Source: Thermodesulfovibrionales bacterium
Lineage (GTDB): Bacteria > Nitrospirota > Thermodesulfovibrionia > Thermodesulfovibrionales > UBA6898
Length of the DNA: 41,870 bases
NCBI GenBank assembly: GCA_044450345.1
Contig: JBIOIY010000023.1
Coordinates: 1-41,870 of the forward strand
Direction of reading: 5' to 3'
In this document: positions 18,791 through 29,074 of the stretch, in pieces
Position numbering within the stretch: position 1 is the stretch's first letter
Layout: every line of letters begins with the position of its first letter
Notes under the pieces: generated by a model
What the model saw: only the letters and a program-made list of their open reading frames with translations
Told to the model about the DNA's origin: nothing
Database searches by the model: none
Program-made: the position numbers and the translations under genes

Positions 18791-20086
18791 ATGCCCCATC
18801 TCCGGCGTGATCTTTCGGGTCCGCCGGAGACGGACGCTCGAAAGAAGTCATTTTATTTCGTAGCGGCGGCAGGTTGCCTCGCGCTGTTTTCGTTGCTTCT
18901 GACCCATTGCTCAGGGGGCGGAAGCGGCCCGGAAACGAACCATACGGGCCTTGAGAAAATCCAGCATATTGTTTTCATCGTCAAGGAGAACCGCACCTTT
19001 GACAATTACTTCGGCGCCTTTCCCGGCGCCGACGGTGCAACCTCCGGTAAGATCTCCACGGGCGGGGTGATTCAGTTCGGGCGGGCGCCGGACCGTCTGC
19101 CGCGGGACATCGGCCACTCCTTTCAGGCCACTCTCGCCGCCATAAACGGCGGTGCGATGGACCGGTTCGATCTCACCCCGGGCGCCAACGTAAACGGCGA
19201 CTACCTTGCGTATACGCAATACACCGAAGCCGGCATTCCCAACTACTTTGCCTACGCGCGCAACTTTGTTCTGGCCGATGCCTTTTTTTCATCTCTCAGC
19301 GGCCCGAGTTTTCCCAATCATCTTTATACCGTCGGAGCGCAATCCGGCGGAGCGATCAGTAATCCCACCAACACTCTGAACACATGGGGGTGCGACTCCC
19401 CTGAGGATTCGACCGTAGATGTTCTGGATGAACTCGGCAACATCACCCCCAAATATCCCTGCTTCGACTTCCAGACACTCGCCGACAGTCTGGAAGCAAG
19501 GGGGATGAGCTGGAAATACTATGCGCCGGGGCGGGGCCAATTCGGCTATTCCTTCTCCGCACTGAACGCCATCTCGCACATCCGTTTCACTTCGCTATGG
19601 AGCAAACACGTGGTGCCCACAGAGGACTTTGTTCAGGATGCGATCAACGGACAATTGCCCGCAGTGAGCTGGGTTGTCGGCGACGTCTTTGTGAGCGAAC
19701 ACCCTCCCTTTAGCGTCTGCGCGGGCGAGAACTGGACCGTGCAGCAACTGAACGCCGTAATGCAGGGGCCCGATTGGAACTCAACCGTGGTCTTTCTCAC
19801 CTGGGACGACTTCGGCGGGTTTTACGACCATGTTCCTCCGCCGGTAGTAGACCGATTTGGGTTCGGCCCGCGTGTTCCCCTCCTGATAATCTCACCGTGG
19901 GTCAAAAAGGGACATATCTCCCATACTCCGCTTGAATTTTCGTCGCTTCTGAAGTTTGTCGAGACGCGTTTCGGTATGAGTCCGCTCACGCAAAGAGACG
20001 CCGGCGCTCACGATATGTCCGACAGCTTTGATTTCAACCAGTCGCCGCTGTCCGCGCTGATTCTTCCGACCCGGCGCTGCCTGTAG
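18791..20086 (+). CDS. Phosphoesterase family protein (phospholipase C/acid phosphatase type), probable lipoprotein
   Basis: [33 protein letters not shown] and GPRVP motifs. Lipobox-like LTHC followed by SGGG. Confidence 0.9.
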
Positions 20087-20135
20087 CGGACATTCGTCCC
20101 GGCTGAGCTATCGAGACCTTTTCACAGGGGCCCGC

Positions 20136-20726
20136 CTACAGTTCCCTTCGCCCCTCCAGGGCCTTGCCGAGGGTGACTTCATCGGCAAACTCGATGTCGC
20201 TGCCCATCGGAAGACCGTAGGCAATTCGGGTCACCTTGACCTGAAACGGTGCGAGTGTTTCCTTGATAAACTGGGCGGTGATCTCACCCTTTGTATTGGG
20301 ATTCGTCGCGAGAATCACCTCTTTCACGCCGCCTTCCCTGACCCTCCCGACGAGTTCTTTGATCTTCAACTTCTCCGGGGTAATTCCATCCAGAGGAGAA
20401 AGTGCGCCCAACAGTACATGGTACCGGCAGTGGAAGCTCTTTACCCGCTCGATCACGTGTATGTTGCTCGGCTCTTCCACGACGCATATCCTGCTCCGGT
20501 CGCGTGACTCATCGCTGCAGATTTCGCAGAGATCGTTTTCTGTAATATTAAAGCATTGGCTGCAGAACCTTGCCTTCTCCTTCACCGCTTCTATCGCCTT
20601 CGCGATCGACAACGCCTCTGCCTCCGGCATCGAGAGGATGAAAAAGGCCAGCCTCTGCGCGGTCTTCCTCCCTATCCCGGGAAGCCGTGTGAGTCCGTTT
20701 ATCAGGTTATCGATAATTCCGTGCAT
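20136..20726 (-). CDS. recR: Recombination mediator RecR
   Basis: LPGIGRKTAQRLA HhH motif, C4 zinc finger, VVEE Toprim, and TRIAYG.P.G...EFAD. Confidence 0.97.
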   Translation of the reverse strand: MHGIIDNLINGLTRLPGIGRKTAQRLAFFILSMPEAEALSIAKAIEAVKEKARFCSQCFNITENDLCEICSDESRDRSRICVVEEPSNIHVIERVKSFHCRYHVLLGALSPLDGITPEKLKIKELVGRVREGGVKEVILATNPNTKGEITAQFIKETLAPFQVKVTRIAYGLPMGSDIEFADEVTLGKALEGRREL

Positions 20727-20775
20727 AATTATATAGCAGTCTGAGAATGGTATTTGCGTATCACGCAGACCGATT

Positions 20776-20845
20776 TGTCATTCCCGCAAGCAAAGCGCGT
20801 CGGGAATCCTTCCGGAAGAAAGATTCCGGACAAGCCGGAATGACA
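20776..20845. repeat. REP-like double hairpin (GTCATTCCCG...CGGAATGAC)
   Basis: TGTCATTCCCG...CGGGAATCC...GATTCCGGACAAGCCGGAATGACA. Near-identical to the copies at 33917 and 35910. Confidence 0.85.
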
Positions 20846-20902
20846 GATAAATACTTTCATTTCAACTCAACACCTAAAGTCGTAATTCAAACCCGTTCTG
20901 CC

Positions 20903-21244
20903 CTATCTTCCGAACATATTGCCCAGGCCGCCCATACCGGGAATCTGCAGTCCGCCTGTCAGCTTGGACATATCCTCGTTGACCAGGTCATGCGCCCTTC
21001 TGAGCGCCTCATTTGCGGCGGCGAGTATAAGGTCCTGGAGCATCTCTACATCGTCAGGATTCACGACATCCTTCTCTATCTTGATCGATACGAGTTCACC
21101 CGCTCCACTGGCAACAACCGCAACCATTCCGCCGCCCGATGTTGCCTCGATTGTCTTTTTCTTGGCTTCCTCCTGCGCCTTCACCATCTCTTCCTGTAGT
21201 TTCTGGGCCTGGCGCATCAAGTCCCCTAACATCTTTTTAGACAT
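20903..21244 (-). CDS. ybaB: YbaB/EbfC nucleoid-associated protein
   Basis: QAQKLQ, SGGGMV, D..MLQDLI.AA.NEA. Start reassigned to ATG 21244, which overlaps the end of dnaX and has a GGAG RBS. Confidence 0.95.
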   Translation of the reverse strand: MSKKMLGDLMRQAQKLQEEMVKAQEEAKKKTIEATSGGGMVAVVASGAGELVSIKIEKDVVNPDDVEMLQDLILAAANEALRRAHDLVNEDMSKLTGGLQIPGMGGLGNMFGR

Positions 21245-22991
21245 GATCTCCTCCGTTCTGTATTTTTTCAGTGCCCTCATCAGGGGTCACGTCGACTATC
21301 CTTCCTTCAAAGAGTTCCAGTGCCTCCCTGATCAAGGGTTCTTCGAGGACCTTTTCCTTGAGGTCCCTTTTCCGTACGCTTTTCTTATGGGCCGTCGTCA
21401 GCTTTATCCTGAGCCTTCTTCCGGCTTCCTCCGACGCTATATTTTCGAGCGTCTTGAGATTACTCTTAATGGATTCTTCAAATACGGCCTGTCCGCCGTT
21501 AAGGGTCAGGCAGAGTTCATCGCCCTTCAATACCGCCGCGGCGTGCGCGAGCTTAGACGCAAGAGGAGGCTCCACCCTCGCAACAGTCCTCCCCCATATA
21601 TCCTGCTCTGCCACGGAGGCCTCCGTACCCCCCTTTTCACCGGGAATAGCTTCCGGCTCTTTTTCAGTCGTGGAAGCAATAGCTTCCGGCTCTTTCTCAG
21701 CCCGGGGAGCAATTGTTTCCGTTGTCTCCTTCGCAGCGGAAAAATCGTGCCTCTTCTCCGTCTTCTTCGCTTCGGAGTTTCCCGAAGCCGGCCGTGGCCG
21801 TCCTTCCTCCGCCTTCGTACTCCCCACCGGTTTCCCGGGAGTAGTCCCTCCCTGCTGTCCTCTGAGCCTGCTGATGTTTTCCAGCGCTTCCTTAATGGGT
21901 TTGACCGTGCTCAGAAAACTCGCCCTGATGAGGGCCATCTCGAAAGCCAAACGGGGCGATGACGAATTCCTTACGTCTGCCTCAGACTTCATGATCTCAG
22001 AAAGCATCAGCGTCAACTGGTCTTCCGATGACGCCGAGACGATATCCTTGACAACGGCGATCTCCTCGGGGCCCAGATCAAGGACTTCCACGGGGTTCCT
22101 CATGACGCTTGCAACAAGGAGGTCCCTGAAAAACTGCACAAGTTCCTTGGAAAAGGCGCGTATGTCTGTCCCCTGTTCGGCAAGGTGGTCCACCGTCTCA
22201 AGTATCCTGACCCTGTCGCCGTTGATCAGGGCCTTCGACATGTCCGCCAACAGGCCGAAATCGGTGATCCCCAGCAGGTTCTTCACATCTTCTTCGTTTA
22301 TTTCGGCAGAGAAGGCGGATATCTGGTCGAGAATCGTCAGCGAATCCCGCATGCTCCCTTCAGCCGCCTTCGCGACAAGGCCGATTGCCGGCGAAGATAT
22401 CCGTATCCCCTCGGCCTCCGAGATCTCCTTAAGCCGCGCCCTGATCACACTGCTCGATATCCTACGAAACGGCATATGCTGGCATCGGGACAGCACTGTC
22501 GCAGGGATCTTTTTCATTTCGGTCGTTGCAAGGACAAAGATTACATGAGGGGGCGGTTCTTCGAGCGTCTTAAGGAGTGCATTGAAGGCCGAGCCGGAAA
22601 GCATATGCACCTCGTCGATAATGTAGACCTTATACCTGCCGCCGGAGGGGGCGTATTTGACTCTTTCCCTGAGGTCCCTGATATCGTCTACACTGTTGTT
22701 CGATGCGCCGTCGATCTCTGCAACGTCTACCGATGAGCCGTCTGTGATCGCAGTGCATGCGGCGCAGACGCCGCAGGGCGCGGCCGTCGGCCCATCCTTG
22801 CAGTTCAAGGCCTTTGCCAGTATGCGCGCAGTAGACGTCTTGCCCACACCCCTTGGGCCGGAGAAGATATAGGCATGGGCGATCCTGCCTTGCGAAATGG
22901 CATTCTTAAGGATCCGCATGATCGGCTCCTGGCCCACAAGGTCGTCAAACCCCCGGGGTCTCCACTTTCTTGCTAATACGAGGTAGCCCAT
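21237..22991 (-). CDS. dnaX: DNA polymerase III subunit gamma/tau
   Basis: LARKWRP, GPRGVGKT, Zn-binding cysteines, DEVHML, NALLKTLEEPP, SRC and GSMRD motifs. Confidence 0.97.
   Translation of the reverse strand: MGYLVLARKWRPRGFDDLVGQEPIMRILKNAISQGRIAHAYIFSGPRGVGKTSTARILAKALNCKDGPTAAPCGVCAACTAITDGSSVDVAEIDGASNNSVDDIRDLRERVKYAPSGGRYKVYIIDEVHMLSGSAFNALLKTLEEPPPHVIFVLATTEMKKIPATVLSRCQHMPFRRISSSVIRARLKEISEAEGIRISSPAIGLVAKAAEGSMRDSLTILDQISAFSAEINEEDVKNLLGITDFGLLADMSKALINGDRVRILETVDHLAEQGTDIRAFSKELVQFFRDLLVASVMRNPVEVLDLGPEEIAVVKDIVSASSEDQLTLMLSEIMKSEADVRNSSSPRLAFEMALIRASFLSTVKPIKEALENISRLRGQQGGTTPGKPVGSTKAEEGRPRPASGNSEAKKTEKRHDFSAAKETTETIAPRAEKEPEAIASTTEKEPEAIPGEKGGTEASVAEQDIWGRTVARVEPPLASKLAHAAAVLKGDELCLTLNGGQAVFEESIKSNLKTLENIASEEAGRRLRIKLTTAHKKSVRKRDLKEKVLEEPLIREALELFEGRIVDVTPDEGTEKIQNGGDHV
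21645..21733. repeat. In-frame 33-bp tandem repeat (about 2.5 copies) in the dnaX linker
   Basis: AATAGCTTCCGGCTCTTT at 21645 and 21678, with a degenerate third copy at 21711. Encodes EKEPEAI twice. Confidence 0.8.
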
Positions 22992-23053
22992 AGTTCTTAT
23001 AGATGCATACCATGCGGGATGATCGCCGCACCCATTCTGTCTTTTTGCAGGCC

Positions 23054-23150
23054 ACGAGCGACTTGCTGCGGCACACAGGAATAATGCTTATCGCTGCTTC
23101 CTTCCGGATCTGACGAGGTTCACACCTGCCTGTTGCGCAGGGCCGCTCGC
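23054..23150 (-). ncRNA. ffs: Signal recognition particle RNA (small bacterial type)
   Basis: GUCAGAUCCGGAAGGAAGCAGC apical motif within a long hairpin, in the canonical position upstream of dnaX. Confidence 0.95.
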
Positions 23151-23287
23151 GGCCTGCAAAAAAACATAGAATAATGCCGATACCAAGGTGGTATTTTCTC
23201 AGACACCATTCACCGGGAGCGTTGAAAAATGTTCTCTATTCTAGCATATTCATCCGTCATTTGGGCATGCGGAAAGCCCTTCCCGCA

Positions 23288-23316
23288 TTGACAATATAAA
23301 GGTATGGTGATAGCCT
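23288..23316 (+). promoter_or_regulatory. Sigma70 promoter
   Basis: TTGACA, 17 nt, TAGCCT with an extended -10 TG. Confidence 0.6.
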
Positions 23317-23357
23317 TGATTAAAATAGCACAACGAAAAAGAAACAGGAGGAACATC

Positions 23358-23621
23358 ATGAAAACAGACCTCTTCACAAAAGCCGTCCTTTCCGCCATCG
23401 CAGTGCTGCTGTGCATGAATCTCATCAGCGGTCTATTGTCTTCGAGACCAGCCACGGCAGAACAGGCCAACGACACGGTAAACAGATACCAGATATCCGC
23501 ATGGGCCTCCTCTATAGGGACATTCGGCCATCACAGCGGATATTACGTGATCGACTCGACAACCGGGAAAGTGGTCGACAAACATGAAGACGTCCATATC
23601 ATTACACCGCCGATACCCTAG
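23358..23621 (+). CDS. Small hypothetical exported or membrane-anchored protein
   Basis: AGGAGG RBS before ATG 23358, N-terminal D.FTK.VL..IA.LL hydrophobic helix, and a short beta-rich domain. Confidence 0.75.
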   Translation: MKTDLFTKAVLSAIAVLLCMNLISGLLSSRPATAEQANDTVNRYQISAWASSIGTFGHHSGYYVIDSTTGKVVDKHEDVHIITPPIP

Positions 23622-23659
23622 CTCGATTCATATATGCGCTTCGGACCTGGACATGCAGT

Positions 23660-23825
23660 ATGGGACTGTATTTGAGCGGCTTCAATTTCTCGTAGTGACC
23701 CGCCGCAGGACGGGTCGAGAAATTCCCTCGGAGCTCCGGGCTACCGGGGCGACCTGCCTGCCGGCAGGCAGGGAATGAGCGTCCGTCACAGACGGATTCG
23801 CCGGGGAGAAAAAATACGGTCCCAT
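23660..23825. mobile_element. MITE-like non-coding element with terminal inverted repeats and internal palindromes
   Basis: ATGGGACTGTATTT ... AAATACGGTCCCAT (14 bp, 1 mismatch). Internal AATTTCTCG/CGAGAAATT, TCCGTC/GACGGA and a perfect 20-bp CCTGCCTGCCGGCAGGCAGG (23753-23772). Confidence 0.6.
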
Positions 23826-23839
23826 GCCGCATTCGTAAA

Positions 23840-24856
23840 TTATCCGGGAGGCGGGACCAGCGTCTTGATCAACCTGAGCAATTTCAGATTTCTGTCATGG
23901 CTCATTACCGAAAGTCTCAGGAAAGACTTCCCCATCCCTGCAATATCTTTGCAGTCCTTTATTAAAAGACCCGCCCTAAGAAAAGAGTCCAATATCCGGT
24001 CGCCGGGACTTTCCACTTTCACAAGATATACGTTCGAATCAGAATCGTAACAGGTGACGCCCGAGACCTTACCCAGTTCCCTTGCAAGGAGTTCCTTCTC
24101 CCCGGCAATAAAACGGCGCGTGAGTTTCCCGTATGTTTTATCTTTGAGCGCAGTCCTTGCCGCCTCTACGGAGAGTAAGTTCAGGCTGCAGTCTTTCACA
24201 TTCCTTAGCTGCCGGATCGCCTGCTGATCAGAAACGGCATAGGCAAGCTCGAGCCCCGGCAGACCGTAAAAATGTGCGGTCGTTCTTATAATGATCACGT
24301 TCCGCCCTGCCGCGGCAACATGGTCGAAGCTGTCTTCGCCGGTAAACTCTATAAGCGATTCATCAATCACGACAAACAAGTTCTTTTGAGCAGATCCCTC
24401 CAGTATTCTGGAAAGCGTCACCGCGTCGACCGATCTCCCGGAAATGCGGTTCGGGTTGGCGATACACACCAGATCGACACCATCGAGTTCCTTGATAATC
24501 TTGCCGGCATCGGAAGCAAATCCCGATTCCTCAGAGAGATCGAGATATAGTACCTCCGCGCCTGTCTTAGATGCTGCCTCTTCATAAAGGCGCAATGCCG
24601 GGCCCGCGATAAGCACCCTCTTCGGTCCGAATGCCCGCATAATGCTGCCGATGACTTCTCTGACGGAATTTGCAAAAATGATCCTGTCGTTGAGGACCCC
24701 GAACTTCGACGAAAACAGCCTCTCCAGCCTCGCTATAGCCGCATCAGGGCAGTTCTTTATATCCTTAGCCGCTTTACGTATCGCGGCCTTGACCTTATTT
24801 GAGGGACCAAGAGGGCATATGCCCGGGCTGACGTCTATGATCTTATCTTCCTTCAT
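23840..24856 (-). CDS. HisC/CobD-like class I/II aminotransferase-fold protein lacking the PLP lysine
   Basis: Fold motifs (PLGPS, ANPN, IDES, FYGLPGL, IKDC, FLRLSV) are present, but the SxxK motif reads TTAH. Confidence 0.85.
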   Translation of the reverse strand: MKEDKIIDVSPGICPLGPSNKVKAAIRKAAKDIKNCPDAAIARLERLFSSKFGVLNDRIIFANSVREVIGSIMRAFGPKRVLIAGPALRLYEEAASKTGAEVLYLDLSEESGFASDAGKIIKELDGVDLVCIANPNRISGRSVDAVTLSRILEGSAQKNLFVVIDESLIEFTGEDSFDHVAAAGRNVIIIRTTAHFYGLPGLELAYAVSDQQAIRQLRNVKDCSLNLLSVEAARTALKDKTYGKLTRRFIAGEKELLARELGKVSGVTCYDSDSNVYLVKVESPGDRILDSFLRAGLLIKDCKDIAGMGKSFLRLSVMSHDRNLKLLRLIKTLVPPPG

Positions 24857-25054
24857 TCCCTGTCCGGATAAGTCCTGTTTTTGACATGCCGGGCTATTAT
24901 ATCATCAATAGCTTTTTCTTAAAACCGTGGTCTTGAAACCCTGACTTATAAACAGGCTGACAATTGCGAAATTTATCTTTACATGGTGGCCGTGCTCCCG
25001 TAGAATAAAGCTGTCTTCGCAGCAAAAAACATACTTCAAGAGGGGGAAAAAGGC

Positions 25055-25657
25055 ATGAATCTGGTTGAACGTGTCAAAGGCATTTTGCTCAGGCCTAATC
25101 AGGAATGGCAGACCATTTCAGGGGAAACTTCAAGCATCGCGGAGATTTACAAATCCTATATTGTTATTCTCGCGGCCATCGGACCGGTTGCATCGATCAC
25201 AGGGATGTCCATTGTGGGTATAAGCTTGCCGTTCGTAGGGTCATTCCGGATCCCGATAACGACTGCCGTGGCCTCGGCCATTGTGCACTACGTTCTTACC
25301 CTCGTCGGCGTATACGTCCTGGCCGCCATCATTGATGCGTTGGCACCCACCTTCTCAGGCGAGAAGAATATGAACCAGGCATTTAAGGTAGCTGCATATT
25401 CCTCTACGCCCGGCTGGCTGGTCGGTATTTTTACGATTATCCCTGCCCTAAGCATCCTCGGCATCCTGGGTCTGTACGGTTTGTATCTTCTTTATCTGGG
25501 ACTTCCCGTCCTCATGAAGTCATCAAAGGAAAAATCGACCGGATACACGGTCGCGGTCGTTGTTGCGGCCATTGTCATTTTTTTGGTTATCGGAGGCGTC
25601 TCCCGCGCCTTCATTTCCTACCCCACGGCGGGCATGTTTACACCGGGGATGCGATAA
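25055..25657 (+). CDS. Yip1 family membrane protein
   Basis: RVK.ILL.P..EW, IIDALAPTF.G, AYSSTP.W and LYLLYLGLP.LM motifs. Confidence 0.9.
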   Translation: MNLVERVKGILLRPNQEWQTISGETSSIAEIYKSYIVILAAIGPVASITGMSIVGISLPFVGSFRIPITTAVASAIVHYVLTLVGVYVLAAIIDALAPTFSGEKNMNQAFKVAAYSSTPGWLVGIFTIIPALSILGILGLYGLYLLYLGLPVLMKSSKEKSTGYTVAVVVAAIVIFLVIGGVSRAFISYPTAGMFTPGMR

Positions 25658-25687
25658 GAAAAGAGATACGGAAGGGAATATCCCGCA

Positions 25688-25715
25688 GTAGGGGCAATTC
25701 ACGGATTGCCCCTCC
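25688..25715. repeat. GTAG-family REP-like palindrome
   Basis: GTAGGGGCAATTCACGGATTGCCCCTCC: a GTAG head plus a GGGGCAAT/ATTGCCCC stem. Confidence 0.65.
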
Positions 25716-25810
25716 ACTTTCATGGGTAGTACCTGTTGGTCACAAATCTTTTTTGCGCTATAATTGGTGCGACAGGATTTCCAGTATGATAGAATCGATC
25801 CCGGGTTTAT

Positions 25811-26701
25811 GTGATGGATGAACTTCTTAAGGAATTAAGATCTCTGAATATGACACTGCGGAGGCTGGCTGATTCGCTTTTGCCCTCTCCCGACCCCGCG
25901 GTCTTCGATACCTTCAGGGCATTCCATGTATATTCCCGTCAGGATGTGCTCCTTTTAAAGGGGATCAAAGACCCTGATCCTATAAGGTTTCGAGAATTAA
26001 AGGGCGTAGACGCCGTGATAGAGGGGCTCAGGGCAAATACAGAGCAATTTCTCCAGGGCCTTCCCTGCAATAACGTATTACTTTACGGACCGAGAGGTAC
26101 CGGAAAGTCCTCGGCAGTAAAGGCGGTATTCAATGCATACGCCGACAGGGGACTAAGGATGATCGAGATGCAGAGGGACACGCTTGTGCATATCCTCGAA
26201 GTCGCGGAGGTGATAAAAAAGAGAAGGGAGAAGTTCATTATTTACTGTGATGACCTTTCCTTCGAGGAGGACGAAAAGTCCTACCGGCAGATAAAGACCA
26301 TTCTCGAAGGGGGACTCGAGAAACAGCCGGCGAACATGCTCATATACGCCACCTCAAACAGGCGCCATCTAATGCCTGAGAAGGCCGCCGATAACCTGCC
26401 GGTTTTTTCGGAGGGAGAACTTCATCCCGGTGAGACCATAGAGGAAAAACTCTCCCTCAGCGACAGGTTCGGGCTGAGGTTCGGATTCCCTCATTTCGAT
26501 GCGGACACCTATCTCTCCATCATCGATAACTATGCCCACCTTAAGAAGATCGGGCTATCGCAGCAGGAATTGAGAGAAAAGGCAATGCAGTGGTCTCTTT
26601 CACACGGAAGTTATTCCGGCAGGACGGCAAGGCAGTTCGTCGACGACCTGGAGGGCAGGACAGGGCGCGGGAAGCCGTCTCGGTCAGGGAAGGCGAAGTA
26701 G
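25811..26701 (+). CDS. DUF815 family AAA+ ATPase
   Basis: NTEQF..G.P.NNVLL, GPRGTGKSS, CDDLSF, YATSNRRHL, EEKLSLSDRFGL and SGRTA.QF motifs. Start is GTG 25811 or ATG 25814. Confidence 0.92.
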   Translation: MMDELLKELRSLNMTLRRLADSLLPSPDPAVFDTFRAFHVYSRQDVLLLKGIKDPDPIRFRELKGVDAVIEGLRANTEQFLQGLPCNNVLLYGPRGTGKSSAVKAVFNAYADRGLRMIEMQRDTLVHILEVAEVIKKRREKFIIYCDDLSFEEDEKSYRQIKTILEGGLEKQPANMLIYATSNRRHLMPEKAADNLPVFSEGELHPGETIEEKLSLSDRFGLRFGFPHFDADTYLSIIDNYAHLKKIGLSQQELREKAMQWSLSHGSYSGRTARQFVDDLEGRTGRGKPSRSGKAK

Positions 26702-26778
26702 GCCTGGCAATAGCAGGGTGGAAGGCGGATATTTTAATCTGAATCTCTTTAGACCGATTTTGTGGAGCAGGGCATACG

Positions 26779-27414
26779 ATGATTGAGTTGACAGGGTACA
26801 TAAAGATATTTACCGCGCTGCTTGCGATAGTAAATCCGCTTGGAGCGATTCCGATCTTTGTCAGCCTTACCGGGAGCCTGACCGAAGGGGAGCGCAGACG
26901 GATCGTACGGACCACAAGCGTGGCCTTTGCCGTAGTGTTGATTGCGGCCACATTAATCGGTGAGGCGCTATTGAACTTTTTCGGTATCAGCATCCCCTCG
27001 TTCAAGGTCGGCGGCGGCATCCTTTTAATGTTAATGGCGATCTCGATGATGCAGGCCAGATACACCCTGACCAGGCAGACCCCTGAAGAGGCCCGGGAAG
27101 CCGAAGACAAGCAAAGCATCGCCGTGGTGCCGATTGCGATCCCTCTTTTAGCAGGGCCGGGTGCAATATCTACGGTAATTATTTATGCGCACGCGTCGTA
27201 TCAGCCGGTGCATATTGCCTTGATCATCTCCATCGTCCTCATGGTAGCGCTCGTGACATGGGCCGCATTGCATGTAGCCAACCCCATCAGCAAACTGTTG
27301 GGCAAAACAGGAATCAATATCGCAACACGACTGATGGGATTGCTCCTGGCCTCGATCTCCGTCGAATTCATTGCCGGCGGACTGACTCAACTGTTTCCCG
27401 GCCTTGCGAAATAA
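26779..27414 (+). CDS. MarC/NAAT family membrane protein (YchE-like)
   Basis: IVNPLG, VVPIAIPLLAGPGAIST and RLMGLLL motifs. Confidence 0.92.
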   Translation: MIELTGYIKIFTALLAIVNPLGAIPIFVSLTGSLTEGERRRIVRTTSVAFAVVLIAATLIGEALLNFFGISIPSFKVGGGILLMLMAISMMQARYTLTRQTPEEAREAEDKQSIAVVPIAIPLLAGPGAISTVIIYAHASYQPVHIALIISIVLMVALVTWAALHVANPISKLLGKTGINIATRLMGLLLASISVEFIAGGLTQLFPGLAK

Positions 27415-27580
27415 GCATCCTGTTTACGAGGCATAGCCCCGAACAACCGTAATTGACTTCCAATAGAAACATGGAGTGAGCAGTTCTTCCTCTTGAACTT
27501 GACACCTTGCAACCTGATATAATGGTGCATAGTACAATTAGAAAGTAATGCCATCGTGAGCTTGCTTTAACGGGAGGATA

Positions 27581-29074
27581 ATGGAAAACCTGAATGTCCA
27601 GGATTTGCTGAGAATGATCGGGGCTGGAACCAGCTTATTTTATGCGGTTACCGATAACGAGCGGTACACGGAAGGAATTGTGGCGCAGGCCGCCGCGTGT
27701 GTGAAAGGGGTAGGGAGTCCCTATGTTTGGACCTGCACCGAAGGTTTCGTCCGGGAGGGATCGTCGTTCAAAGAGACGGTAGAACCTCTGCCGGCGCTCG
27801 ACTTCGCCATCGCGCAACCAGGACCCGCGATTTTTCTTTTCAAGGACTTATACAGATTTTGGGGGAATAACCCGTTTATTATCAGAAAGCTGAAAGAATT
27901 TGCCGTGCGGGCCCGATCAAAGATCCTGATTGTCATTGGTGAAGAGGAGGCTGTGCCGGAACCGTTGAGAGAAGACGTCGTTATTCTCTACCAGGGACTG
28001 CCTGCCATAGCAGAGATCAAGGCGCACCTGGAGTCCCTGAAAGGACGCATTCCGCTACTGGCGCAGGCCTGTGCCGCCGATCCCGAGCTGGCGGGGGGGT
28101 TGGTAGTGGCGGCCCAGGGGCTTCATCTTGAGGACATCGAGCGCAGCATCGGCGCTTTCAATCAGTCTCAGGTCGGCAGCGGCAACGAAATCGTTCGGGT
28201 GTTCTTCGAGACCAAACAGCAGATCATCAGAAAAAGCGGCATCATGGAGTTTGTCGTCAATGATACCGCTCTGGACCATCTGGGCGGGATAGAAAACCTC
28301 AAAAAATGGCTGGAGCGTCGTGAAACGGCATTCGGCCTGGATAACATTTCTGCCGGTGCAAAGATGCCGAAAGGGGTATTGGTCATGGGGATATCCGGCT
28401 GCGGCAAATCGCTGTTTGTAAAGGCGATCGCCACTCGGTGGCGCCTTCCCCTTATCCGGCTGGATATGGCGGTTGTGTTTGGGGGGGCGTTCGGCTCCCC
28501 GGAGACCAGCCTGCGCAAGGCGTTCAGGACTTCAGAGGCGATTGCGCCCTGTGTCCTCTGGATAGATGAGATCGAGTCCGGCATTTCATCGCAGGGATTC
28601 AAGGTTGAAGGAGGCGCCGCTTCACGGGTCCTTGGGTCGTTCCTGACGTGGATGCAGGAAAAAAATGCGCCTGTTTTTGTCGCTGCTACCGCCAATGCCA
28701 TCGAGATGCTTCCCGCGGAAGTGCTGCGTAAGGGACGCTTCGATGAGATATTTTATATGGGGCTTCCCGATGAAACGGCGAGGGAAGAAATATTCCGCAT
28801 TCATATGAAAAAGCAGAATATCGACCCTTCCGGGACTGATATCCCGCTACTGGCGCGAATGGCCAACCGTCTTTCCGGAGCTGAAATCGAGCAGGTGGTC
28901 AAATCAGCGGCTTTCGAGGCCCTTGCCGATAAGCGTCCCATTGTCGAAAAGGATTTCTTAGCAGCTCTGAGAGGGATCGTCCCTCTTTCGGTGACCATGG
29001 CTGAACAGATAAATAACATCGAGGCCTGGGCCTTTAAGCGCGCAGTGCCGGCCTCGGGGGAATTAAGGCGTTAG
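27581..29074 (+). CDS. AAA ATPase, Ycf46-like
   Basis: Degenerate N-terminal domain (FLFKDL), GG..NLK.WL, GISGCGKS, LWIDEIE, FLTWMQE and LRKGRFDE motifs. Confidence 0.88.
   Translation: MENLNVQDLLRMIGAGTSLFYAVTDNERYTEGIVAQAAACVKGVGSPYVWTCTEGFVREGSSFKETVEPLPALDFAIAQPGPAIFLFKDLYRFWGNNPFIIRKLKEFAVRARSKILIVIGEEEAVPEPLREDVVILYQGLPAIAEIKAHLESLKGRIPLLAQACAADPELAGGLVVAAQGLHLEDIERSIGAFNQSQVGSGNEIVRVFFETKQQIIRKSGIMEFVVNDTALDHLGGIENLKKWLERRETAFGLDNISAGAKMPKGVLVMGISGCGKSLFVKAIATRWRLPLIRLDMAVVFGGAFGSPETSLRKAFRTSEAIAPCVLWIDEIESGISSQGFKVEGGAASRVLGSFLTWMQEKNAPVFVAATANAIEMLPAEVLRKGRFDEIFYMGLPDETAREEIFRIHMKKQNIDPSGTDIPLLARMANRLSGAEIEQVVKSAAFEALADKRPIVEKDFLAALRGIVPLSVTMAEQINNIEAWAFKRAVPASGELRR

Follow-up and report, generated by a model that had tools for sequence, protein, structure and literature searches.

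Introduction

What may a bacterium keep the fold of a pyridoxal 5'-phosphate (PLP) enzyme for when the residues that bind the cofactor have been exchanged? The question is raised by a gene at positions 23840-24856 on the minus strand of a 41,870-nucleotide stretch of contig JBIOIY010000023.1 (assembly GCA_044450345.1, a Thermodesulfovibrionales bacterium of the phylum Nitrospirota); this whole stretch is referred to below as the window. The gene encodes a CobD-like protein that lacks the lysine to which the cofactor is attached in the canonical relatives, and both gene and protein are called X here for short. An earlier note on this DNA had described an intact HisC/CobD homologue with a dismantled PLP site and had proposed a selected state instead of decay, with a role that might be that of a ligand sensor or of a partner subunit for an active paralogue. 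Our analysis indicates that X is, on balance, probably a selected, PLP-dead homodimeric pseudoenzyme, a paralogue derived from CobD in which the pocket has been rebuilt.

Pseudoenzymes with a PLP-enzyme fold are already known as a kind. LCB1 (SPTLC1) of serine palmitoyltransferase is a lysine-less fold-type I paralogue kept by selection, forming an obligate heterodimer with the active LCB2; X differs from it in that no active partner is indicated. The clade of X is a further variant and is solid as an evolutionary finding: a full-length protein that has lost every cofactor-binding hallmark and yet persists as a single copy across a whole bacterial family, with newly fixed residues in the old active site. 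It provides a clean natural system for asking what the PLP fold does without PLP. A full-text literature search in a limited collection returned no paper describing lysine-less CobD or HisC homologues.

The gene and its active-site residues

According to the list of open reading frames (ORFs) and the translation, X has 338 codons, an ATG start and zero internal stops, in agreement with the full-length uninterrupted frame reported earlier. Residues were numbered by hand along the HMMER alignment of X to Salmonella CobD (1lc5). The roles of the CobD residues (Schiff-base lysine, PLP ligands) follow the CobD and aspartate aminotransferase literature; in canonical enzymes the Tyr56 position, like Tyr70 of aspartate aminotransferase, is given in trans to the PLP phosphate of the partner subunit. 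The features of the gene are as follows.

23840..24856, minus strand: coding sequence of X, lysine-less CobD-like protein (338 aa, P0001); from ORF and translation, PF00155, AlphaFold2 and Foldseek
24272..24274, minus strand: His195, codon CAT, at the Schiff-base Lys position (CobD Lys216); codon readout and HMMER alignment
24248..24250, minus strand: Glu203, codon GAG, at the PLP-phosphate Arg position (CobD Arg224); codon readout and alignment
24446..24448, minus strand: Arg137, codon CGC, at the PLP O3' Asn position (CobD Asn157); codon readout and alignment
24362..24364, minus strand: Asp165, codon GAT, retained counterpart of the pyridine-N1 Asp (CobD Asp185); codon readout and alignment
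24665..24667, minus strand: Ser64, in place of the second Gly of the GNG phosphate-binding turn (CobD Gly84); position computed from the start at 24856
24749..24751, minus strand: Cys36, at the Tyr position of the YPD motif (CobD Tyr56), relaxed across the clade; alignment
23915..23917, minus strand: Arg314, retained counterpart of the C-terminal substrate-binding Arg (CobD Arg337); alignment

The same alignment pairs Thr192 with Ser213, Ala194 with Thr215 and Lys300 with Arg323, and places Ala62-Asn63-Ser64 of X on Gly82-Asn83-Gly84 of CobD. The histidine and glutamate codons called earlier at the Schiff-base and phosphate positions were thus read back as such, and the altered motifs listed with them (CPD, ANSVRE, NPNRISG, DESL and RTTAHFYGLPGLELAY) are all present, as is FLRLSV near the C-terminus.

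X is a genuine full-length member of the fold-type I class I/II family, in its HisC/CobD branch. PF00155 (Aminotran_1_2) matches residues 5-327 over profile positions 2-358 of 361 with 90.3 bits against a gathering cut-off of 19.7, and the ESM Atlas clusters nearest to X are all PF00155 or CobD-named. It is neither a CobD nor a HisC in the strict sense. The CobD equivalog model TIGR01140 gives 170.8 bits, far under its cut-off of 290.55, and at Lys216 and the PLP ligands Arg224, Asn157 and Gly84/Thr86 X carries His195, Glu203, Arg137, Ser64 and Arg66; the HisC equivalog model TIGR01141 gives 164.5 bits, far under 276.55, and the catalytic lysine of HisC is absent as well. Fused forms of X were not found at E <= 1e-20 among proteins of 593-2000 aa, which is weak evidence.

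A clade with a rebuilt cofactor site

Of 8000 candidates scored in a word-indexed protein search, 192 matched at E <= 0.001; among the best 120 of these, identity to X runs from 97% down to 44%. An exhaustive search of representatives showed a step in the scores, with clade members reaching down to 217 bits (41% identity) and ordinary relatives beginning at 190.8 bits (33%). From these searches 138 full-length clade sequences were compared with 95 canonical lysine-bearing representatives; positions are given in X and CobD numbering.

195 / Lys216: clade N 38, Y 32, F 26, H 19, C 11, L 8, A 2, D 1, S 1, K 0/138; canonical K 95/95
203 / Arg224: clade E 134/138; canonical R 95/95
137 / Asn157: clade R 129/138; canonical N 92/95
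64 / Gly84: clade S 137/138; canonical G 95/95
194 / Thr215: clade A 133/138; canonical T 91/95
168 / Phe188: clade L 133/138; canonical F 89/95
165 / Asp185: clade D 137/138; canonical D 95/95
314 / Arg337: clade R 120/138; canonical R 95/95
36 / Tyr56: clade Y 23/138, 14 residue types; canonical Y 95/95
224 / interface Trp: clade W 0/138; canonical W 95/95
300 / Arg323: clade R 50/138; canonical R 95/95
12 / Asn32: clade G 119/138; canonical N 65/95

The contrast at the lysine position, complete in both sets, means that the changes are not due to chance or sequencing error, and the close homologues, which the earlier note allowed might all have kept the lysine, form instead the lysine-less clade with the arginine-to-glutamate exchange for which it suggested looking. 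Its observation that the C-terminal arginine of FLRLSV is kept holds for the window protein and does not extend to the whole clade. The trans-acting tyrosine and the substrate-phosphate arginine are both relaxed, and Ser64, Arg137, Leu168, Thr192, Thr193, Ala194, Glu203, Ala205 and Ser316 are newly fixed. Since some of the canonical invariants became free while another set became invariant, the site was not merely freed from constraint; much of the new set sits where canonical enzymes touch the cofactor.

In a quick-method maximum-likelihood tree of 77 rows, rooted with the HisC of the window's own genome, the 21 clade rows are monophyletic among CobD-like sequences (Shimodaira-Hasegawa-like approximate likelihood ratio test, SH-aLRT, 100; stem 0.55), and the clade itself is placed in an unresolved polytomy among them.

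Distribution

The profile built from 34 clade members (A1) scores X at 509.6 bits, the CobD of the same genome at 199.3 and its two HisC proteins at 133.1 and 125.4. When a phylum sample of 301 genomes was scanned with it, just the 6 genomes from the GTDB family of the window exceeded 300 bits, and the X-type gene was not found in the 295 sampled genomes outside this family. Among the 20 best matches outside the family, 19 have the lysine and all canonical motifs and one (in genome G199) has phenylalanine at the lysine position. The gene is present in 42 of the family's 54 genomes, with one match each at E <= 1e-85; the carriers comprise 33 of the 35 high-quality family genomes and 15 of the 16 genera. 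X is a single-copy, vertically inherited gene of one GTDB family of Thermodesulfovibrionales-type Nitrospirota. A scan of the genome contigs with the single protein found no relative, whereas the alignment-based scan did find related loci. Four distant extra loci (L049-L052) were rejected as clade members: they are canonical HisC-like genes with the lysine, except that the site lies outside L052, a fragment of 128 aa.

A shorter form was seen in the complete family genome G327 (G327:C94:17574-18425), one of the two high-quality genomes not counted as carriers. There the profile matches positions 4-76 and 132-335 in one 323-aa frame and skips positions 77-131, so that the large domain apparently lacks about 55 residues.

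Selection and evolutionary rate

The ratio of non-synonymous to synonymous substitution rates (omega) was computed by the Nei-Gojobori method between X and three metagenomic orthologues of 83-89% identity. It is 0.20-0.27 at synonymous distances (dS) of 0.26-0.44; the bootstrap 95% confidence intervals all fall between 0.12 and 0.39, and not one of 1000 replicates attains a value of 1. Other genes of the same loci gave the following values.

ybaB: omega 0.05
recR: omega 0.06
marC: omega 0.10
DUF815: omega 0.11-0.14
dnaX: omega 0.12-0.20
yip1: omega 0.15-0.21
conserved small ORF: omega 0.22-0.29

For comparison with the paralogues, the orthologue identity was taken to five family genomes that have all four of them.

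X: 68 / 52 / 47 / 45 / 42%
CobD: 77 / 56 / 60 / 51 / 52%
HisC2: 90 / 71 / 68 / 72 / 70%
HisC1: 85 / 70 / 69 / 71 / 66%

Purifying selection on X is clear, and X is the loosest of the four paralogues, slightly looser than the active CobD. The earlier proposal of a selected state is therefore borne out by the conserved clade and by omega, including the value below 1 that it had named as a check. Properties expected of a pseudoenzyme are seen here, namely the absence of cofactor and catalytic residues throughout the clade, purifying selection, and retention across species.

Predicted fold and homodimer

The AlphaFold2 model of X, made with the clade alignment, has a mean predicted local distance difference test score (pLDDT) of 89.7 and a predicted template modelling score (pTM) of 0.89. 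Foldseek superimposes it on Salmonella CobD 1lc7 with template modelling (TM) scores of 0.95/0.90 and a root-mean-square deviation of 1.9 A at 23% identity, followed by 3FTB, 3FKD and HisC structures, so that the CobD fold is predicted to be intact. Salmonella CobD (PDB 1LC5/1LC7/1LC8; TIGR01140) is the best structural match, with the same length and domain order, and shares with X the counterparts of Asp185, Glu186 and Arg337 and the P-G-L loop. X differs from it by the absence of Lys216, by the replacements of Arg224 by Glu, Asn157 by Arg, Gly84 by Ser, Thr215 by Ala and Asn32 by Gly, and by the relaxation of Tyr56 and Arg323; unlike CobD, it does not adjoin cob genes, and its genome has a separate true CobD.

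Prediction with two copies of X gave an ipSAE of 0.80 against 0.48 for the best control, at least 91% of the contacts agreeing between runs and the partner pLDDT being at least 85. In the calibration, 20 of the 30 solved pairs reached the mark applied to ipSAE, as did 1 of the 23 single chains; because CobD and HisC dimers have already been solved, the pass of the X homodimer may reflect likeness only. The predicted interface brings the 198-203 loop, including Glu203, against the 32-37 loop of the other copy and also involves the N-terminal helix. Its columns are more conserved in the clade than the rest (1.54 vs 1.88 bits); fixation of Pro18, Lys23 and Arg27 is confined to the clade, in which Tyr56 and Trp, constant at the canonical interface, are free to vary.

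Active paralogues and cobalamin synthesis

A canonical cobD and canonical hisC genes, for which the earlier note had advised looking, do exist in the genome of the window. Its CobD scores 332.3 bits with TIGR01140 and lies between cbiB and cobB; the two HisC score 341.9 and 339.3 bits with TIGR01141, the second sitting behind pheA. All three contain the full canonical motifs, including the lysine. Canonical CobD above the cut-off occurs in 17 of the 54 family genomes, and a hand tally of the two tables gave the following distribution.

X and CobD both: 15 genomes
X only: 27 genomes, 12 of them at least 96% complete
CobD only: 2 genomes
neither X nor CobD: 10 genomes

X is independent of the cobalamin synthesis genes, and no cob genes were noted among the recurrent neighbour families of X in 37 loci. 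With canonical CobD in so few genomes, the family appears to have only a patchy distribution of the threonine-phosphate decarboxylase step in cobalamin synthesis, which automatic naming of X as CobD would mask.

Discussion

The clade is unable to form the internal aldimine at the canonical position; in addition, the charge is reversed at the cofactor-phosphate site and an arginine is placed at the O3' site. Given the established chemistry of fold-type I enzymes, the absence of the lysine implies that PLP-dependent decarboxylation and transamination are lost. The acidic residue where the phosphate would bind suggests that the pocket no longer holds PLP, while the clustering of new invariants in it, together with the retained Asp165, suggests that it is still a functional site. 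Arg137 may fold into the pocket and pair with Glu203 or Asp165 as a putative built-in plug; alternatively, the pocket might bind a different ligand that is not a phosphate, and Arg314 could then still serve to hold a carboxylate. X would most likely act alone, as a small-molecule-binding or regulatory dimer and not as a subunit of CobD.

A more far-reaching version, which we put forward only tentatively, regards the rebuilt pocket as a new site, a cofactor-free receptor or catalyst in which Arg137 would replace the pyridoxal ring, Asp165, Glu203, Ser64, Thr192-193 and Arg314 would read the new ligand, and the clade would be one instance of a recurrent route, with PDB 3FKD as another. If this were true, the CobD scaffold would repeatedly yield non-PLP proteins, all of them now mis-annotated as threonine-phosphate decarboxylases.

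Several observations weigh against the interpretation of X as a selected homodimeric pseudoenzyme. Its omega is among the higher values at these loci (0.05-0.29 for the neighbouring genes) and it evolves fastest of the four paralogues, both of which fit a weakly constrained role. A few family genomes are without X (G340, 96% complete) or have the shorter form (G327). Co-variation of Arg137 and Glu203 is not strict: Leu137 occurs together with Glu203 in five sequences, and in three others Arg137 is accompanied by Gly or Ala at position 203, which argues against an indispensable salt bridge. Conserved lysines (Lys21, Lys23, Lys51, Lys325) do exist in the clade, and the variable neighbourhood of the gene yields no functional partner.

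The alternative that X is a non-catalytic partner, heterodimerising with the active HisC1, HisC2 or CobD and tuning or completing their activity, has a bacterial model in Ser4 of the Ser4/Ser5 heterotetrameric aminotransferase of Serratia sp. ATCC 39006, a functional fold-type I protein without the catalytic lysine that forms the active heterotetramer with Ser5 (PMC11726168). Ser4/Ser5 is the nearest bacterial precedent for a functional lysine-less fold-type I protein. X has conserved the dimer surface of fold type I, and candidate partners exist, as both HisC-type paralogues of the window's genome are above the TIGR01141 cut-off and have orthologues in 5 of 5 family genomes searched; the co-occurrence of X with HisC is uninformative, however, because HisC is present in every family genome searched for it. 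Ser4, a member of the sugar-aminotransferase branch, is truncated at both ends and encoded in tandem with the partner that is active, whereas X is full length, has no adjacent paralogue and is predicted to be a homodimer. The survey of the neighbourhood covered the window and 36 related loci, and its crude greedy ORF calling missed X in 2 of the 37; the X cluster has 35 members in 35 loci, so no second PF00155- or aminotransferase-like gene lies within 7 kb of X in these 35. The documented bacterial dead relative of a PLP enzyme adjoins its active partner, while X is kept family-wide away from any paralogue. CobD, for its part, is missing from 27 of the 42 carriers and co-occurs in just 15, the trans tyrosine is retained in only 23 of 138 clade members, the interface tryptophan in none against all 95 canonical sequences, and the self-pairing score is well above the best control. 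These points weaken the partner role suggested in the earlier note, and we consider it unlikely, although a pairing with HisC may still occur.

About equally improbable is a neofunctionalised enzyme that would either hold pyridoxamine 5'-phosphate (PMP) or PLP non-covalently with the histidine as acid/base, or work without a cofactor. The earlier statement that fold-type I enzymes need the lysine proved too absolute: ColD, E1 and SpnQ, PMP-dependent 3-dehydratases of the same fold type, have histidine in its place and use it with PMP (PMC8987622), and the window protein has its histidine exactly at that position. Asp165 is invariant, moreover, and the newly fixed polar residues of the pocket exceed what a mere scaffold would need. 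In the dehydratases the catalytic histidine is conserved and PMP is bound, whereas in the clade of X histidine occurs in 19 of 138 members, N, Y, F, C and L being equally accepted, and the phosphate ligands are replaced; as the histidine is not conserved, the PMP route is unlikely for X. The replacements at the phosphate arginine, Thr215, Gly84 and the O3' asparagine should disfavour any B6 phosphate, and no sugar-nucleotide or other pathway genes are linked to X in the neighbourhood loci. A canonical PLP enzyme in which the Schiff-base lysine has been relocated is very unlikely. Lys21 (132/138), Lys51 (121/138) and Lys325 (137/138) are conserved in the clade and not in the canonical relatives, Lys23 has an entropy of 0.44 bits in the former against 3.33 in the latter, and migrated catalytic residues are described for other pseudoenzyme candidates (PMC10211241); the ligands of PLP other than lysine have been replaced too, however, with the charge reversed at the phosphate site, and Lys23 and its neighbours fall in the predicted interface helix, not in the pocket. 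Finally, X as a functionless decaying copy or an assembly or sequencing artefact is already contradicted and can hardly be correct: its rapid evolution and its absence or shortening in a few family genomes are set against intact full-length frames in 42 of 54 genomes and 15 of 16 genera, bootstrapped omega values that never reach 1, many clade-specific invariant residues and a confidently predicted fold.

Other lysine-less lineages and database names

Approximately 20 of some 120 non-clade rows among the top representative matches are lysine-less, and at least 5 changes between lysine and non-lysine states are needed on the 77-row tree. Lysine-less CobD-like lineages arose several times, which suggests a wider, unrecognised class. 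One separate lysine-less clade of 10 rows (SH-aLRT 100) consists of P0155, P0172, P0215, P0222, P0224, P0227, P0234, P0254, P0258 and P0264; its signature is PNPH(D/N)xTG with R(S/T)FSxF(H/Y), and the phosphate arginine is mostly kept. The gene with phenylalanine in G199, a genome from another family of the same order (contig C11; L079, 4802-5950, minus strand, also L054), is a second, independent lysine-less CobD-like gene in which GNGSTE, NPNNPTG, DEAF and GLRIGY are all intact. It lies between a DAGK/PAP2 gene and an Ogg glycosylase gene, not in a cob operon, and in the 77-row tree it groups with four other lysine-less representatives beside the canonical CobD of Thermodesulfovibrionales.

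A solved structure with a similar substitution is PDB 3FKD, deposited as the L-threonine-O-3-phosphate decarboxylase of Porphyromonas gingivalis, which also has histidine at the Schiff-base lysine position and matches X with a TM score of 0.85; it differs from X in that its phosphate arginine is kept (GLRIGY), and the identity is 21%. A literature search for '3FKD' returned only one unrelated paper, where these characters do not denote a PDB entry.

Members of the X clade bear the public names 'threonine-phosphate decarboxylase' (JGI) and 'aminotransferase class I/II-fold PLP-dependent enzyme' (NCBI). As functional calls these names are wrong, and they would inflate predictions of the B12 pathway in metagenome-assembled genomes of Nitrospirota.

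Gene neighbourhood and further observations

Gene context was judged to be no guide to the function of X, as the neighbours vary by genus and look like inherited synteny and not operon logic. In 7 loci the gene immediately upstream, on the strand of X and separated from it by 28-181 nt, is RidA-like (PF14588) and follows genes for the large and small subunits of an aconitase-family protein; in other lineages the upstream neighbour is a divergent DUF815 ATPase gene, a radical-SAM gene or ppdK. Downstream, three arrangements were observed. The first has an HD-GYP sensor gene on the opposite strand, with der and a BrkB/YihY gene after it; the second is a pair of histidine kinase and response regulator genes; and the third, in a set that includes the window, consists of a small ORF, ffs, dnaX, ybaB and recR.

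Ahead of X no riboswitch or leader was found with Rfam at the gathering threshold over 20000-26000, where the signal recognition particle (SRP) RNA is the sole match, and a consensus scan for sigma-70-type promoters, which needs a -35 hexamer, gave no minus-strand promoter upstream of X. An extended -10-like motif, TGATATAAT, was noticed by eye at 24896-24904 on the minus strand, 39 nt upstream of the ATG at 24856. In the metaproteome supplements of the Ca. Sulfobium paper (PMC5812927), three query terms had 0 occurrences in the files searched, file 3 being outside the search.

Other features of the window around X are listed below.

23052-23149, minus strand: ffs, bacterial small SRP RNA (RF00169, 68.5 bits against a gathering threshold of 40), between X and dnaX-ybaB-recR
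21237-22991, minus strand: dnaX
20903-21280, minus strand: ybaB
20136-20726, minus strand: recR
23304-23621, plus strand: ORF of 105 aa, convergent with X
25055-29074, plus strand: divergent run of genes for a Yip1-domain membrane protein, a DUF815 AAA ATPase, a MarC-family membrane protein and a further AAA ATPase

The 105-aa ORF has a hydrophobic N-terminus and no Pfam match. It is kept in 5 related loci, where the other versions are 84-87 aa long, with omega of 0.22-0.29, and it looks like a real small protein, probably an exported one. In the divergent run, DUF815 is the upstream neighbour of X in 11 of the 37 loci.

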